The notes under the pieces: model-generated
The model's database searches: none
What the model was told of the DNA's origin: nothing
What the model saw: only the letters and a program-made list of their open reading frames with translations
In this document: piece after piece, positions 13,182-58,130 of the stretch
Layout: every line of letters begins with the position of its first letter
Numbering within the stretch: the stretch's first letter is position 1
Position numbers and translations under genes: made by a program
Assembly (NCBI GenBank): GCA_017633255.1
Contig: JAGBPS010000022.1
Coordinates: 2,963 to 66,962 of the forward strand
DNA length: 64,000 nucleotides
Direction: 5' to 3'
Origin: Bacteroidales bacterium
Lineage (GTDB): Bacteria > Bacteroidota > Bacteroidia > Bacteroidales > WCHB1-69

Positions 13182-13262
13182 CAGGTTGTTTTTTTTAATT
13201 AAGAACAAAGAATTAAGAGTTAAGAATGTTGATTTGTTTTTTTCGTTAAGAAGTTGAGATGA

Positions 13263-13325
13263 ATTTTTAATTCTTAGTTTTTAGTTCTTAATTTTCAACT
13301 TTCAGTTTTCAATTTTCAGTTTTCA
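13263..13325 (-). repeat. Stop-phased heptamer array (9 units) starting at the ddl stop codon
   Basis: Minus strand from 13325: TGAAAAC TGAAAAT TGAAAAC TGAAAGT TGAAAAT TAAGAAC TAAAAAC TAAGAAT TAAAAAT. Confidence 0.92.
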
Positions 13326-15219: not shown

Positions 15220-15264
15220 TTGGCACATTAGCACATTTGCTAATTAGCACATTGAAAAATTTCG
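15220..15264 (+). repeat. Promoter-proximal octamer module TTGGCAC-ATTAGCAC-ATTTGCTA-ATTAGCAC-ATTGAAAA
   Basis: Runs directly into the prfA -7 box. Related copies at 30505-30537, 31977-32033 and 57704-57778(-). Confidence 0.85.
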
Positions 15265-15272
15265 TATCTTTG
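15265..15272 (+). promoter_or_regulatory. -7 box TATCTTTG (prfA)
   Basis: Matches TAnnTTTG, 28 nt upstream of ATG 15300. Immediately preceded by the octamer module 15220-15264. Confidence 0.65.
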
Positions 15273-28774: not shown

Positions 28775-30391
28775 ATGGAAAACAATTATACTGACAACAA
28801 TAGTTCAGCCAACAACCGCATCAAGAATTTCTTCACCATCGCCATCTCGTTTCTGGTGGGTATGACGGTGGCGCTGTATTTTGTTCCCGGTCGGCAAAGC
28901 GGACTGAGCAAGATGCAAAGCAACAAATTGGATGAGGTGGTGAAGTACGTTAACTCATATTATGTGGATACGGTGAACACGGACAAATTGTTTGAAATCG
29001 CCATTAATTCGATGTTGCAGGAGCTGGACCCGCACTCCACCTACGCCAATGCCACTGAAAACAAAGCCATGATGGAGAGTTTGGAAGGGGCTTTTGAGGG
29101 AGTGGGCATCCAGTTCAGCATCATGAACGACACCATTATGGTAATTTCCACGGTCAGTGGCGGTCCTTCCGAAAAGCAGGGCATTCGTGCCGGCGACCGT
29201 ATTGTGACTGTGGATGGCAAGAATGTGGCGGGTATCGGTATTCAGAATGATGAGGTGATGAAGATGCTCCGTGGCAAGAAGAAAACCACGGTGGTCATCG
29301 GCATTTTGCGACAAGGTTCCGTAAATGATTACACGGTCACCCGTGACGTGATACCTACCTATACGCTTGATATTTCCTACATGGTTGATGATCACACGGG
29401 TTATATCAAAATCAACCAGTTTGGGGCTACGACTGCCGACGAATTTGAGGCGGCGATCAAGAAGTTGAAAAAACAGGGTATGACCAAGATGATACTGGAT
29501 TTGCGAAGCAATTCAGGAGGTTTCCTGGATGCCGCTATCCAGATTTGTGACGAGTTCTTGGCCAAGGGGGAGATGATTGTTTACACGGAAGGCTTGCATG
29601 TGCCTACGGACAAGATATATGCCACTCGTTATGGTAATTTTGAAAAGGGTGAAGTGGTGGTACTGATTGACGATTTCAGCGCTTCTGCCAGTGAGATTGT
29701 GGCCGGAGCCATCCAGGATAATGACCGTGGTATTGTGGTGGGTCGTCGTTCTTTCGGAAAAGGACTGGTACAAAGACAGATAGACCTTTCTGACAAGTCT
29801 AGCATCCGTCTGACAGTGGCGCGTTATCATACCCCCAGTGGACGATGCATCCAGCGTGAATACGGCGAGGGAACGGAAGCTTATTACGAGGATTTCATTG
29901 ACCGCTATTATCGTGGCGAGATGAGCCATTCCGATAGCATCAAGTTTGATGAGAACCAGAAATTCACTACCAAGAAAGGACGTACGGTGTATGGTGGTGG
30001 CGGCATTATGCCCGACTATTTCATTCCTTTGGATGAAGACAGCACATTGAATGCTTATTACCAGGTGTTGAATTCATCAGCCATTATCCAGTTTGCTTTC
30101 AATTATGCTACTGATCATAAGGATAAAATTCTGAAACAATTCCCCACGGCTCAAGACTATGTGAAGAAAATGACGGTGAGCAATGATTTACTCAAACAAC
30201 TGCTGAATTTCTATACGCAAAAGACAGGATTGAAGGTGAAAGACCTTAATGCAGAATCTATCAAGGAACTCAAGGTTTGGCTCAAAGCCTTGATTGGACG
30301 TGATGTATACCAAGACGAAGCTTTCTATCCCGTCATCAACAGCACTGACAAAACTTTCCTGAAAGCAGTAGAGCTGACAATTGAAAACTGA
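28775..30391 (+). CDS. S41-family C-terminal processing peptidase (Ctp/Tsp) with PDZ domain
   Basis: 538 aa. Contains GVGIQF, a PDZ domain (GPSEKQGIRAGDRIVTVDG), DLRSNSGG and SASASEI..GKGLVQ. Confidence 0.9.
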   Translation: MENNYTDNNSSANNRIKNFFTIAISFLVGMTVALYFVPGRQSGLSKMQSNKLDEVVKYVNSYYVDTVNTDKLFEIAINSMLQELDPHSTYANATENKAMMESLEGAFEGVGIQFSIMNDTIMVISTVSGGPSEKQGIRAGDRIVTVDGKNVAGIGIQNDEVMKMLRGKKKTTVVIGILRQGSVNDYTVTRDVIPTYTLDISYMVDDHTGYIKINQFGATTADEFEAAIKKLKKQGMTKMILDLRSNSGGFLDAAIQICDEFLAKGEMIVYTEGLHVPTDKIYATRYGNFEKGEVVVLIDDFSASASEIVAGAIQDNDRGIVVGRRSFGKGLVQRQIDLSDKSSIRLTVARYHTPSGRCIQREYGEGTEAYYEDFIDRYYRGEMSHSDSIKFDENQKFTTKKGRTVYGGGGIMPDYFIPLDEDSTLNAYYQVLNSSAIIQFAFNYATDHKDKILKQFPTAQDYVKKMTVSNDLLKQLLNFYTQKTGLKVKDLNAESIKELKVWLKALIGRDVYQDEAFYPVINSTDKTFLKAVELTIEN

Positions 30392-30430
30392 AAACTGAAA
30401 GTTGAAAACTGAAAACTAAGAATTAAAAAT
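30382..30430 (+). repeat. Stop-phased heptamer array (7 units) spanning the ctp stop codon
   Basis: TGAAAAC TGAAAAC TGAAAGT TGAAAAC TGAAAAC TAAGAAT TAAAAAT. The second unit (30389-30391) is the real stop. Confidence 0.92.
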
Positions 30431-30492
30431 ATTTCAACAATTCAACAATTCAACAGTTCAACAATTCAACATTCTTAACTTTTAATTCTTAG
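30416..30492 (+). repeat. 13-bp perfect stem CTAAGAATTAAAA / TTTTAATTCTTAG enclosing a (TTCAACAA)x5 octamer array
   Basis: Stem arms at 30416-30428 and 30480-30492. The loop at 30433-30472 reads TTCAACAA TTCAACAA TTCAACAG TTCAACAA TTCAACAT. Confidence 0.8.
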
Positions 30493-30504
30493 TTCTTAAC
30501 TTAA

Positions 30505-30537
30505 TTGGCATATTAGCACATTGATAATTAGCACATT
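30505..30537 (+). repeat. Octamer module copy TTGGCATATTAGCACATTGATAATTAGCACATT
   Basis: Ends 7 nt before the kdsC ATG (30544). Confidence 0.8.
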
Positions 30538-30543
30538 AAATAT

Positions 30544-31065
30544 ATGAACGATTATCGCGACAAACTGAAAAACATCACCACCTTCATTTTTGATTTTGAC
30601 GGGGTGCTTTCAGATGGTAAAATATGGGTATTGCCCGATGGCGACCAACTGAGAGCCACTGGCGTAAAAGACGGCTATGCCTTGCAATACGCGCTTCGCA
30701 AAGGCTACAGGGTAGCGGTCATTTCCGGTGGCTATTCCGAATCCATGCGCCTGCGCTACAAGAATTTTCCAGGCATGGAAATCTTTTTGCAGGTACGCAA
30801 TAAGGTCAAAGTTTATAACGAGTATCTGGACAAATATGGTCTCAGCCGCGAGGAGGTGATGATGATGGGCGATGACATTCCCGATTATGAGATTATGCAG
30901 CTTAGCGGCCTCAAATGCTGTCCTGCCGATGCCGCCGAGGAAATCAAAGCCATTGCCGACTATGTTTCCGTGAAAAAAGGTGGTGAAGGAGCCGCCCGCG
31001 ATGTCATTGAACAGACTCTCAAAGCCCAGGGACGCTGGTTCGAAAAGGATGCCTGCATCTGGTAA
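30544..31065 (+). CDS. kdsC: 3-deoxy-D-manno-octulosonate 8-phosphate phosphatase (HAD family)
   Basis: 173 aa. Motifs FIFDFDGVLSDG and MGDDIPD. Confidence 0.85.
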   Translation: MNDYRDKLKNITTFIFDFDGVLSDGKIWVLPDGDQLRATGVKDGYALQYALRKGYRVAVISGGYSESMRLRYKNFPGMEIFLQVRNKVKVYNEYLDKYGLSREEVMMMGDDIPDYEIMQLSGLKCCPADAAEEIKAIADYVSVKKGGEGAARDVIEQTLKAQGRWFEKDACIW

Positions 31066-31976: not shown

Positions 31977-32033
31977 TTGGCATATTAGTACATTGAAAAT
32001 TAGCACATTAACTAATTTGCTAATTTGCTAATT
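31977..32033 (+). repeat. Octamer module copy TTGGCATATTAGTACATTGAAAATTAGCACATTAACTAATTTGCTAATTTGCTAATT
   Basis: Lies between the xerD stop and the -7 box at 32042. Confidence 0.85.
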
Positions 32034-32041
32034 ATTTTTTG

Positions 32042-32049
32042 TATCTTTG
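32042..32049 (+). promoter_or_regulatory. -7 box TATCTTTG (DUF4197-like lipoprotein)
   Basis: 27 nt upstream of ATG 32076. Preceded by the octamer module 31977-32033. Confidence 0.65.
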
Positions 32050-38840: not shown

Positions 38841-38860
38841 CCCCATACGTCAGTATGGGG
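38815..38860 (+). repeat. Hairpin element, copy A (GCCTC-GAA-GAGGC .. AATAA CCCCATAC-gtca-GTATGGGG)
   Basis: Hairpin 1 lies inside the last cvpA codons and hairpin 2 starts right after the stop. A partial second hairpin-1 copy is at 38888-38900. Confidence 0.8.
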
Positions 38861-38924
38861 TGGGTGAACAATCTCTGTCATCGTCAAGCCTCGAAGAGGC
38901 AACACTATCAATAGAAACTGTATA

Positions 38925-41398: not shown

Positions 41399-41430
41399 TT
41401 TTAAAGAATATAAAGATAATTCCTTAAGCA

Positions 41431-41515
41431 GCCTCGAAGAGGCAAGATTTTAATAACCCCGCACAAGCGATAGCGCAGTGTGGGGCACCGCACAAGGCGA
41501 AGCCGAAGTGTGGGG
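41431..41515 (+). repeat. Hairpin element, copy B (three hairpins)
   Basis: GCCTCGAAGAGGC aagattttaataa CCCCGCACaaGCGatagCGCaGTGTGGGG CACCGCACaaggcgaagccgaaGTGTGGGG. Confidence 0.85.
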
Positions 41516-41539
41516 AGTGTGAAACAAAAGAAATAAGCA

Positions 41540-41624
41540 GCCTCGAAGAGGCAAGATTTTAATAACCCCGCACAAGCGATAGCGCAGTGTGGGGCACCTC
41601 ACAAGGCGCAGCCGCAGTGTGGGG
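41540..41624 (+). repeat. Hairpin element, copy C (tandem, 109-bp period with copy B)
   Basis: Identical to B through hairpin 2. Hairpin 3 differs at 4 positions (CACCTCAC..GGCGCAGCCGCA..). Confidence 0.85.
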
Positions 41625-41638
41625 ATAAAAAGAAATAT

Positions 41639-58045: not shown

Positions 58046-58130
58046 CGGAGAGAGAGGGATTCGAACCCCCGGACCCGTGAGGGTCAACGGTTTTCAAGAC
58101 CGCCGCAATCGACCACTCTGCCATCTCTCC
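58046..58130 (-). tRNA. tRNA-Ser (anticodon UGA)
   Basis: Reverse complement: GGAGAGATGGCAGAGTGGTCGATTGCGGCGGTCTTGAAAACCGTTGACCCTCACGGGTCCGGGGGTTCGAATCCCTCTCTCTCCG. It has a 7-bp acceptor stem, anticodon loop CUUGAAA, a long variable arm, T-loop TTCGAAT and discriminator G, with no encoded CCA. A -7 box TACTTTTG sits at 58136-58143(-). Confidence 0.93.

Follow-up and report, generated by a model that had tools for sequence, protein, structure and literature searches.

The window analysed here, a stretch of 64,000 nucleotides (C26:2963–66962) from a rumen Bacteroidales genome of 2.28 Mb, 46% GC and 44 contigs (G000 below), contains a gap of 152 bases (30392–30543) between ctp, the gene of an S41 C-terminal processing peptidase (28775..30391, + strand), and kdsC, the gene of KDO 8-phosphate phosphatase (30544..31065, + strand). 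Judged from its sequence, this spacer appears to be a copy of a composite cassette, which goes beyond what local slippage would produce. Our working interpretation, in which our confidence falls only a little short of even, is that in the ctp–kdsC spacer we have one copy of a modular intercistronic cassette specific to the clade, through which transcription passes and which closes the reading frames behind ctp and then provides a leader for kdsC. The read-through and the translational role are what we infer; the anatomy of the spacer, its family, its polarity, the missing terminator and promoter signals, its history and its conservation are matters of observation.

The gene names given in an initial annotation of this DNA are sound, since the ctp open reading frame scores 276 bits against TIGR00225 (cut-off 219) and kdsC scores 121 bits against TIGR01670 (cut-off 107). 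The latter gene starts with the ATG at 30544, its N-terminus is conserved among the relatives, and xerD begins 14 nt after it. The same annotation described the spacer as composed wholly of repeats, and both direct reading and Tandem Repeats Finder (TRF) bear this out. The series opens with seven stop-led heptamers (30382..30430, + strand; direct reading and TRF, with a period-7 array called by TRF at 30374–30417), which are in order TGAAAAC, TGAAAAC, TGAAAGT, TGAAAAC, TGAAAAC, TAAGAAT and TAAAAAT. The units begin with TGA or TAA and the 7-nt period rotates the frames, so that stop triplets stand in all three of them. The second unit supplies the real stop of ctp, as had been claimed: the final codons ATT GAA AAC and the TGA at 30389–30391 are formed by the heptamer array. 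Past the residues KAVELT the C-terminus of Ctp is different in every relative (IEN, GDN, KEK, KER, TEK, NEN and others; window 30380–30391 and the equivalents in L001–L006), and these last three residues vary because the repeat array, or whatever DNA trails the gene, supplies the codons and the stop.

The heptamers include the left arm of an inverted repeat, AACTAAGAATTAAAA (30414..30428, + strand; inverted-repeat search), which is of the TTAAGAA heptamer type, an arm type that recurs in paralogous cassettes. The initial annotation saw here a perfect 13-bp stem; the pairing is indeed perfect (100% complementary), but the arms are 15 nt long (30414–30428 / 30480–30494) with 51 nt between them, a length that none of 1000 dinucleotide shuffles reached (maximum 14, mean 7.7). 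Both arms consist of one repeated heptamer. The loop is filled by an array of the octamer TTCAACAA (30433..30471, + strand; TRF, 4.9 copies, 93% matches), in agreement with the five octamers counted previously, and is followed by the right-arm block ATTCTTAACTTTTAATTCTTAGTTCTTAACTTA, which is made of TTCTTAA heptamers (30472..30504, + strand; TRF and inverted-repeat search) and has the right arm at 30480–30494 inside it; TRF called a period-7 ATTCTTA array at 30471–30499. Next comes the module TTGGCATATTAGCACATT-GATA-ATTAGCACATT (30505/30506..30537, + strand; direct reading), here in the form that abuts a start codon and that we call class B. The 18-mer TTGGCATATTAGCACATT at 30506–30523 ends 20 nt before the ATG and the second ATTAGCACATT unit at 30527–30537 ends 6 nt before the ATG of kdsC; the initial annotation was right to place the module close before this start codon and mistaken in naming the 18-mer as its end and 7 nt as the distance. 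Seen as a whole, the module consists of three direct repeats spaced 8 and 14 nt, copies 1 and 3 being 22 nt apart, or about two helical turns. Between it and the ATG lies the A-rich hexamer AAATAT (30538..30543, + strand; direct reading), which in class B copies elsewhere reads GAAATC, AAAAAC, AAAAAT or TAAATT.

The same parts recur in the same order at other places: the stop heptamers come first, then the TTAAGAA arm, the loop of octamers, the TTCTTAA arm and the ATTAGCACATT module, and an A-rich stretch of 4–7 nt leads to the ATG. This fixed order is read from aligned examples, which are the paralogues in G000 and the homologues in G002, G007 and G009, three other species of the genus. Paralogues of the right half (octamers, right arm and module) lie in G000 at C18:17242–17328, C25:8531–8618 and C28:36668–36746, with 90–93% identity over 79–88 nt. 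Homologues of the whole spacer were found at unrelated junctions in G002, G007 and G009 (72–83% over 165–178 nt), where stop-side heptamers, (T/C)TAAGAA, CAATTMAA octamers, ATTCTTAACTCTTAATTCTTAGTTCTTAA, an ATT(A/G)GCACATT module and 0–7 A-rich nucleotides lead up to an ATG. The left end of the cassette is variable, consisting of TGAAAAC, TTGACAG or AGGGGAC arrays. The homology of the first half of the spacer to a cassette 3′ of ddl, already noticed in the initial annotation, is well supported: 13194..13319 (− strand) aligns with 30374–30504 at 76% over 131 nt (E = 1.4e-21) and contains stop heptamers, TTAAGAA arm, loop and TTCTTAA arm, without the module. A genome search for the stem sequence, which had been advised there, was also productive, with the arm CTAAGAATTAAAA found seven times and in a hairpin context each time, in some cases with short loops and stems of 25–30 bp. 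Because the other CTAAGAATTAAAA hairpins include these short-loop forms, the large ctp–kdsC loop looks like an expansion site.

Repeats of this kind are abundant throughout the genome, of which 88% is coding and 12% intergenic by our crude (first-ATG) gene calls. In the genome-wide TRF scan 2188 arrays were called, with a sharp excess at period 7 (564 arrays, 475 intergenic vs 89 genic) and period 8 (374 arrays, 305 vs 69). Arrays with periods of 7, 8, 14, 16 and 21 are about 85% intergenic and those with periods of 6, 9 and 12 mostly genic; period-7 and period-8 arrays are present in a third of the gaps of at least 40 nt. The spacer units are TGAAAAC, TGAAAGT, TAAGAAT, TTCAACAA and ATTAGCAC, and the pattern TGAAAACTGAAAAC occurs 54 times in G000 vs 0 for its reversed control. 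Copy number changes: run X6 has one TTCAACAA unit fewer (an 8-nt deletion at 30433), and G007 and G009 differ by one TGAAAAC heptamer.

The arrays are strongly polar. In co-directional gaps (TGAAAAC)n is sense to the upstream gene in a ratio of 30:2, with a median start 0 nt from the stop, and TGACAGT, TGAAAGT, TAAGAAC and TAGGGAT show the same orientation behaviour; the statement of the initial annotation that the cassette follows gene orientation therefore holds generally. TGAAAAC-family arrays lie within 40 nt of a called stop in 47 of 70 cases. Across co-directional spacers the G-minus-C content of the units, taken on the mRNA strand, is higher near the stop and declines towards the start (rho = −0.51, p = 6e-33; 485 arrays). 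Sense-strand stop triplets are enriched just after stops (1742 vs 1551), and just before starts there is a roughly 1.6- to 2-fold deficit of start triplets (981 vs 1556; 224 vs 456 for ATG alone). The nusA–infB spacer (L062:2575–2699; C5 in G000) carries TGAAAAC-type arrays together with their inverted complement (CAACTTT)n, and no −7 box was seen in it. A rumen metatranscriptome contig from a related strain spans nusA and infB through a variant array spacer of 73 nt, an instance of read-through in a comparable spacer.

A genome scan for the ATTAGCACATT module, tolerating one mismatch, yielded 440 units in 243 clusters. Thirty of the clusters with at least two units are closely followed downstream by a canonical TAnnTTTG box, 21 of them at a distance of exactly 11 nt, in a promoter-side layout (class A) of the form ...ATTAGCACATT-GAAAAAATTTG-TATCTTTGCA. 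Eight, kdsC included, make up class B and end 0–6 nt before an ATG (6 nt in 6 of the 8) without a −7 box, and some of the remaining multi-unit clusters run into the 3′ end of a convergent gene. The term promoter module used in the initial annotation thus suits many copies elsewhere but not the one at kdsC, which has no core promoter. Two other copies lie in the window: a class A copy followed by GAAAAATTTCG and then by TATCTTTG, a canonical core promoter (15220..15272, + strand; C26:18182), and a module with CTAATTTG octamers and the TATCTTTG −7 box upstream of the next operon (31977..32049, + strand), which is conserved in L001 and L002.

Seven of the genus's ten species, G000 among them, are rich in TGAAAAC arrays, which are rare elsewhere; the module is abundant in the same seven, and likewise in three further genera of the family, and is absent from most other genomes. 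In G054, a 5.1-Mb genome from another Bacteroidales family, we found 191 module matches, and there too several of the modules abut start codons (L068, L069, L076), for example as ATTGGCACATTAGCACATTGATTAATTGGCACATT-ATG. Next to the modules of G054 (L065–L076) lie arrays of further heptamers and octamers, among them CCAGTGA and GGCATAAG. The module is also present in 14 phage contigs of IMG/VR. In one phage group (L081–L085, L088, L090–L094; e.g. L081:6642–6770) the interval from a structural gene to a gene of 153 aa, which by its sequence is a putative amidase (endolysin), is occupied by 8–16 ATTNNCAC octamers, or 66–132 nt; the number of octamers differs between otherwise similar contigs, and reversed AATGTGCT units come directly after the upstream stop.

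According to the initial annotation, the hairpin would terminate transcription at this locus and the module would restart it. A terminator followed by a promoter is unlikely at ctp–kdsC because the spacer lacks a −7 box and terminator signals and because the junction of the relatives is only 9 nt long. The stem is made of A/U pairs and two G-C pairs, its loop is 51 nt and its tail is CTTAACTTAATT; neither a GC-rich stem nor a short loop nor a U-tract, as expected of an intrinsic (Rho-independent) terminator, nor any terminator-like site was found in the spacer. With a minimum free energy of −15.8 kcal/mol the spacer folds no more stably than dinucleotide shuffles (z = −0.12), and the stem is missing from the centroid structure. 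Of nine AT-hairpin family spacers those of ctp–kdsC and ddl are the least structured, and array-rich spacers in the genome at large are not more structured than others (mean z of −2.2 vs −2.1). The TAnnTTTG −7 box of Bacteroidota sigma-A promoters, which is expected some 20–40 nt ahead of a start codon, does not occur within 30392–30543, including the part from the module to the kdsC ATG; elsewhere in the genome there are 487 such boxes. The 429 module-free promoter-like sites of G000 share aAAAAATTTTTGTAtTTTTGCA, to which nothing in 30505–30543 is similar, and show no −33 TTTG peak. A scan of the spacer for E. coli-type −35/−10 elements gave only a weak 9/12 match within the heptamers, at chance level. 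A search of the 64-kb window against Rfam 15 at the gathering threshold matched nothing in the spacer, its sole match being a tRNA at 58046–58130.

The relatives, recovered by a search with the ctp protein, are metagenome-assembled genomes (MAGs) of Bacteroidales from rumen, deer and horse. In L007 and L008 the ctp–kdsC junction is 9 nt and in L009 it is 23 nt, and the 9-nt junction points to an ancestral ctp–kdsC operon. In the genus's repeat-poor species (G003, G006, G008) the junctions are tight and the density of arrays is at background level. The sister species L001 has a junction of 120 nt with TTAACAG heptamers and GC-rich hairpins resembling repetitive extragenic palindromes (REPs), and in L002 and L004–L006 about 1 kb of inserted genes separates the two genes, kdsC then having a genuine TATCTTTG (TAnnTTTG) promoter. 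Hence the cassette is a young expansion at an operon junction, which speaks for transcription having to run through it if kdsC and xerD are to be expressed.

Spacers with arrays are frequently rearranged between species: when G000 is compared with G007, less than half of the sequence can be aligned (fraction below 0.5) in 13 of 22 array-bearing spacers vs 5 of 18 spacers without arrays. Cassettes that are shared at an orthologous junction are close to invariant. At junction J2 the cassette differs between species at 2 of 116 positions, compared with 17–18% for the adjacent coding sequences and about 40% for their third codon positions; in the module at junction J1, 1 of 32 positions is different. 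The ctp–kdsC spacer itself has 2 differences in 113 positions in a metagenomic strain in which ctp differs by 8% and kdsC by 6–10%. Conversion from paralogues does not explain this conservation because the orthologues (98%) are closer to each other than the paralogues are (81–93%), and the near-invariance of the cassettes reflects either selection or an exchange between lineages that is limited to the cassette. In the metagenomic strain a tract of about 300 nt (window 30308–30611), which takes in 65 nt at the end of ctp, the spacer and 67 nt at the start of kdsC, contains only about 3 differences; it reflects either a recombination tract or selection acting on an initiation region of greater extent.

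The events at this junction may be pictured as follows. The cassette replaced an ancestral operon junction of 9 nt and would be transcribed as part of a ctp–kdsC–xerD message, with no terminator and promoter. The stop-rich, C-free heptamers would end translation in every frame after ctp, and the tract beyond them, G-poor, poor in start codons and weakly structured, would together with the module and the A-rich hexamer present the kdsC ATG for initiation independent of a Shine-Dalgarno site. Replication slippage would change the lengths of the arrays, and recombination would spread whole modules between spacers. Since parts of the cassette family are better conserved than the genes beside them and turn up again in other bacterial families and in phages, they probably affect the expression of the downstream gene. 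Shine-Dalgarno-independent initiation is typical of Bacteroidota, and the expression of internal cistrons in their operons is poorly understood.

Several points weigh against this interpretation. The depletion of start codons before starts is partly forced by the first-ATG gene calls. The class A modules upstream of promoters lie outside the mRNA unless transcription reads in, which fits a role at the DNA level better. The non-random 15-bp repeat and the tight 25–30 bp hairpins of its relatives may have a hairpin role of their own, for example in mRNA stability or attenuation. The extreme conservation could stem from cassette-limited recombination instead of selection. Finally, the RNA-labelled runs that cover the locus with uniform depth in contigs of 40–45 kb (X22, X23) are probably DNA. 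Contigs reach up to 45 kb in the RNA-labelled runs with the locus (X22–X24), and in X22 and X23 the depth is equal across ctp, spacer and kdsC; all three runs are probably DNA despite their label and hence have no bearing on transcription. Genuine rumen metatranscriptomes cover the organism at a depth of only about 2–9×, as Logan contigs without read ends.

In the rumen metagenomes X1, X4, X6, X9 and X33 the summed contig depth over the repeats (window 30372–30560) is 10–1000× that of the flanking genes, and contigs break off inside the arrays in the same interval. Since the depth is so much greater than in the flanks and contigs end within the arrays, the repeat words must be very abundant in the rumen community. 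The arrays fragment short-read assemblies in this way and can mislead the calling of gene starts and stops in rumen MAGs.

Other explanations of the spacer have to be set against the cassette as a transcribed leader. The arrays may be non-functional simple-sequence DNA, born by slippage and tolerated, with selection filtering their orientation only and the apparent grammar arising as a by-product. Heptameric long simple sequence repeats are a known and mostly intergenic class, as far as the cited account describes them (PMC4679880), and a 9-nt ancestral junction, the restructuring of most array spacers between G000 and G007 and the polymorphic copy number all agree with such an origin. Neutral DNA should nevertheless diverge at least as fast as third codon positions, of which about 40% differ, and the cassette cores differ at 2 of 116 positions; paralogue conversion is not the cause, given 98% identity between orthologues against 81–93% between paralogues. 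Nor would neutrality lead one to expect the fixed registers of the module (a −7 box at 11 nt, an ATG at 6 nt) or the presence of the same module of about 35 nt at ATGs in another family and in phages, and we regard this explanation as rather unlikely. Termination of ctp transcription by the long-loop hairpin, with the TTGGCATATTAGCACATT module as a promoter restarting it for kdsC, seems to us highly improbable. The inverted repeat is non-random, the module stands directly before canonical core promoters at 30 loci at least, and the paralogues at C25:8531 and C28:36668 have this arm and this module together with a genuine TATCTTTG box, all of which speaks for the idea; at kdsC itself, however, there is no −7 box, no resemblance to aAAAAATTTTTGTAtTTTTGCA in 30505–30543, no GC-rich stem and no U-tract, the fold is no better than that of shuffles and its centroid has no stem. 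Only 6 nt separate the module from the ATG, too few to accommodate a −7 box and a leader, and the relatives have either tightly coupled genes or, after insertion, a separate genuine promoter.

The spacer might instead act as DNA, either as an array of binding sites for a protein (a nucleoid-associated protein, a global regulator or a recombinase) or as a rheostat tuned by slippage, in which the number of repeats would determine spacing or leader length and through these the expression of the downstream gene. The distance of about two helical turns (22 nt) between copies 1 and 3 of the module would suit such sites, as would the occurrence of the module both upstream of promoters and at ATGs and its patchiness across genera and families, which is expected of a horizontally moving factor and its sites. 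Phages vary the octamers from 8 to 16 before the endolysin gene, and the 7-nt repeats of Haemophilus hmw1A are a precedent for a rheostat in so far as the source treats them (PMC12721329). We think this distinctly unlikely, as no candidate protein was found, 440 units per 2.3 Mb are many sites if the regulator is a specific one, no shared theme links the downstream genes (kdsC and other housekeeping genes that are unrelated), and the sense-strand polarity points to RNA or translation and not to double-stranded DNA. Dispersed copies at 80–93% identity, inverted arms (which are internal) and a patchy distribution that includes phages could also be the mark of a mobile element inserting into intercistronic junctions, similar to a MITE (miniature inverted-repeat transposable element) or mobilised by a REP-associated tyrosine transposase (RAYT, a Y1 transposase) as are REPs and the bacterial interspersed mosaic elements (BIMEs). 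No genome of the genus lacks genes for Y1 transposases, and the repeat-rich species tend to have more of them (1–6, mean 3.7, vs 1–2). Nevertheless, we find a mobile element very unlikely: the hairpins beside the RAYT-like genes in G000 are GC-rich and belong to another family, the left end is variable, and neither a target-site duplication nor a sharp common boundary was seen by eye. Moreover, cassettes at orthologous junctions in three species imply vertical inheritance, and the modules occur separately and in other combinations.

A link between the cassette and the RAYT/REP system was considered and rejected, as the three RAYT-like genes of G000 have GC-rich hairpins at their flanks (CCCCGCAC...GTGTGGGG, GTACCGAAGGTAC) and not the AT-rich heptamers or the module. 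These Y1-transposase genes of about 150 aa lie at C30:203663–204115, C30:84239–84691 and C21:14074–14700, and such genes are present in 10 of 10 genomes of the genus. The hairpins flanking them look like the family that forms 109-bp tandem units in the window (41425–41625, 38841–38924), and CCGAAGG-type hairpins similar to them are found in the ctp–kdsC spacer of L001.

A wider conjecture suggests itself, which we consider possible though rather unlikely. In the ATTAGCACATT module and the cassette that bears it, Bacteroidales and their phages may possess an expression element that acts in cis and is new to science, read by a host factor or by the Shine-Dalgarno-independent ribosome, held in a fixed register to starts or core promoters and kept under strong purifying selection, with the 7–8-nt arrays as slippage-tunable spacers that set the output of the downstream gene. 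A family of fixed order and strand polarity, better conserved than the adjacent coding sequences and shared by several rumen and gut lineages and phages, would be a handle on the expression of internal cistrons in Bacteroidota, and could supply expression-control parts for these organisms.

No description of these repeat units or of the cassette was found in the searchable literature, where the exact repeat words gave nothing relevant, and the comparison has to be made with systems of other sequence. Enterobacterial REPs and BIMEs are dispersed extragenic mosaics of short motifs, often placed between co-transcribed genes, and their hairpins can stabilise the upstream mRNA; REPs are GC-rich imperfect palindromes mobilised by RAYTs. 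The cassette is like BIMEs in being an intercistronic, hairpin-bearing mosaic with motifs in fixed combinations. It is unlike REPs in being AT-rich and built of tandem heptamers and octamers, and the RAYT genes here are flanked by another repeat family. The short tandemly repeated repetitive (STRR) sequences of cyanobacteria are families of tandem heptamers that fill the intergenic regions of particular lineages, for which, to our knowledge, neither a fixed module order nor a conserved start-proximal module has been described; the cassette belongs to a different phylum and has different units. Repeat-number rheostats are represented by the 7-nt repeats upstream of Haemophilus hmw1A, the copy number of which varies in populations, as far as the cited texts report (PMC12721329, PMC8262952). 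With these, within the bounds of the same texts, our arrays share the variable copy number and the location of heptamers ahead of a start codon and behind a promoter or an upstream gene; hmw1A repeats are single contingency loci of a pathogen, whereas the arrays described here lie at hundreds of housekeeping junctions and are known from their sequence.

The long simple sequence repeats of prokaryotes (Mrazek et al. 2007), in the account available in PMC4679880, have tandem units of 5–11 nt, mostly 7, are strongly intergenic, differ in abundance between lineages and are resized by slippage. Tandem units of 5–11 nt, an intergenic bias of the periods that are not multiples of 3 and slippage among relatives were all found here, and the spacer arrays belong to the heptanucleotide long simple sequence repeats. 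We take the arrays themselves to be simple repeats made by slippage, set within a conserved and dispersed cassette. Unlike the known repeats of this class, the cassette has a recurrent order of unit families, a strict sense-strand polarity and a conserved module that is not tandem, and whole composites are dispersed and conserved across species. The closest likeness is to the TAACTGA system. The TAACTGA direct repeats (MacGregor 2015) are known from marine Beggiatoaceae, cyanobacteria and a few Bacteroidetes (PMC4679880), often at junctions without Shine-Dalgarno sites; their patchy spread hints at transfer, and they have been proposed to act in translation (PMC4679880). The unit sequence is different in our case, and TAACTGA arrays lie mostly just upstream of start codons, whereas here TGAAAAC arrays keep to the stop side and ATTAGCACATT octamers to the start side. 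In both systems, nevertheless, the repeats are intergenic heptamers oriented with the genes, place stops in three frames and in some cases overlap the upstream stop codon, as at ctp, where the stop is the second unit of the array.

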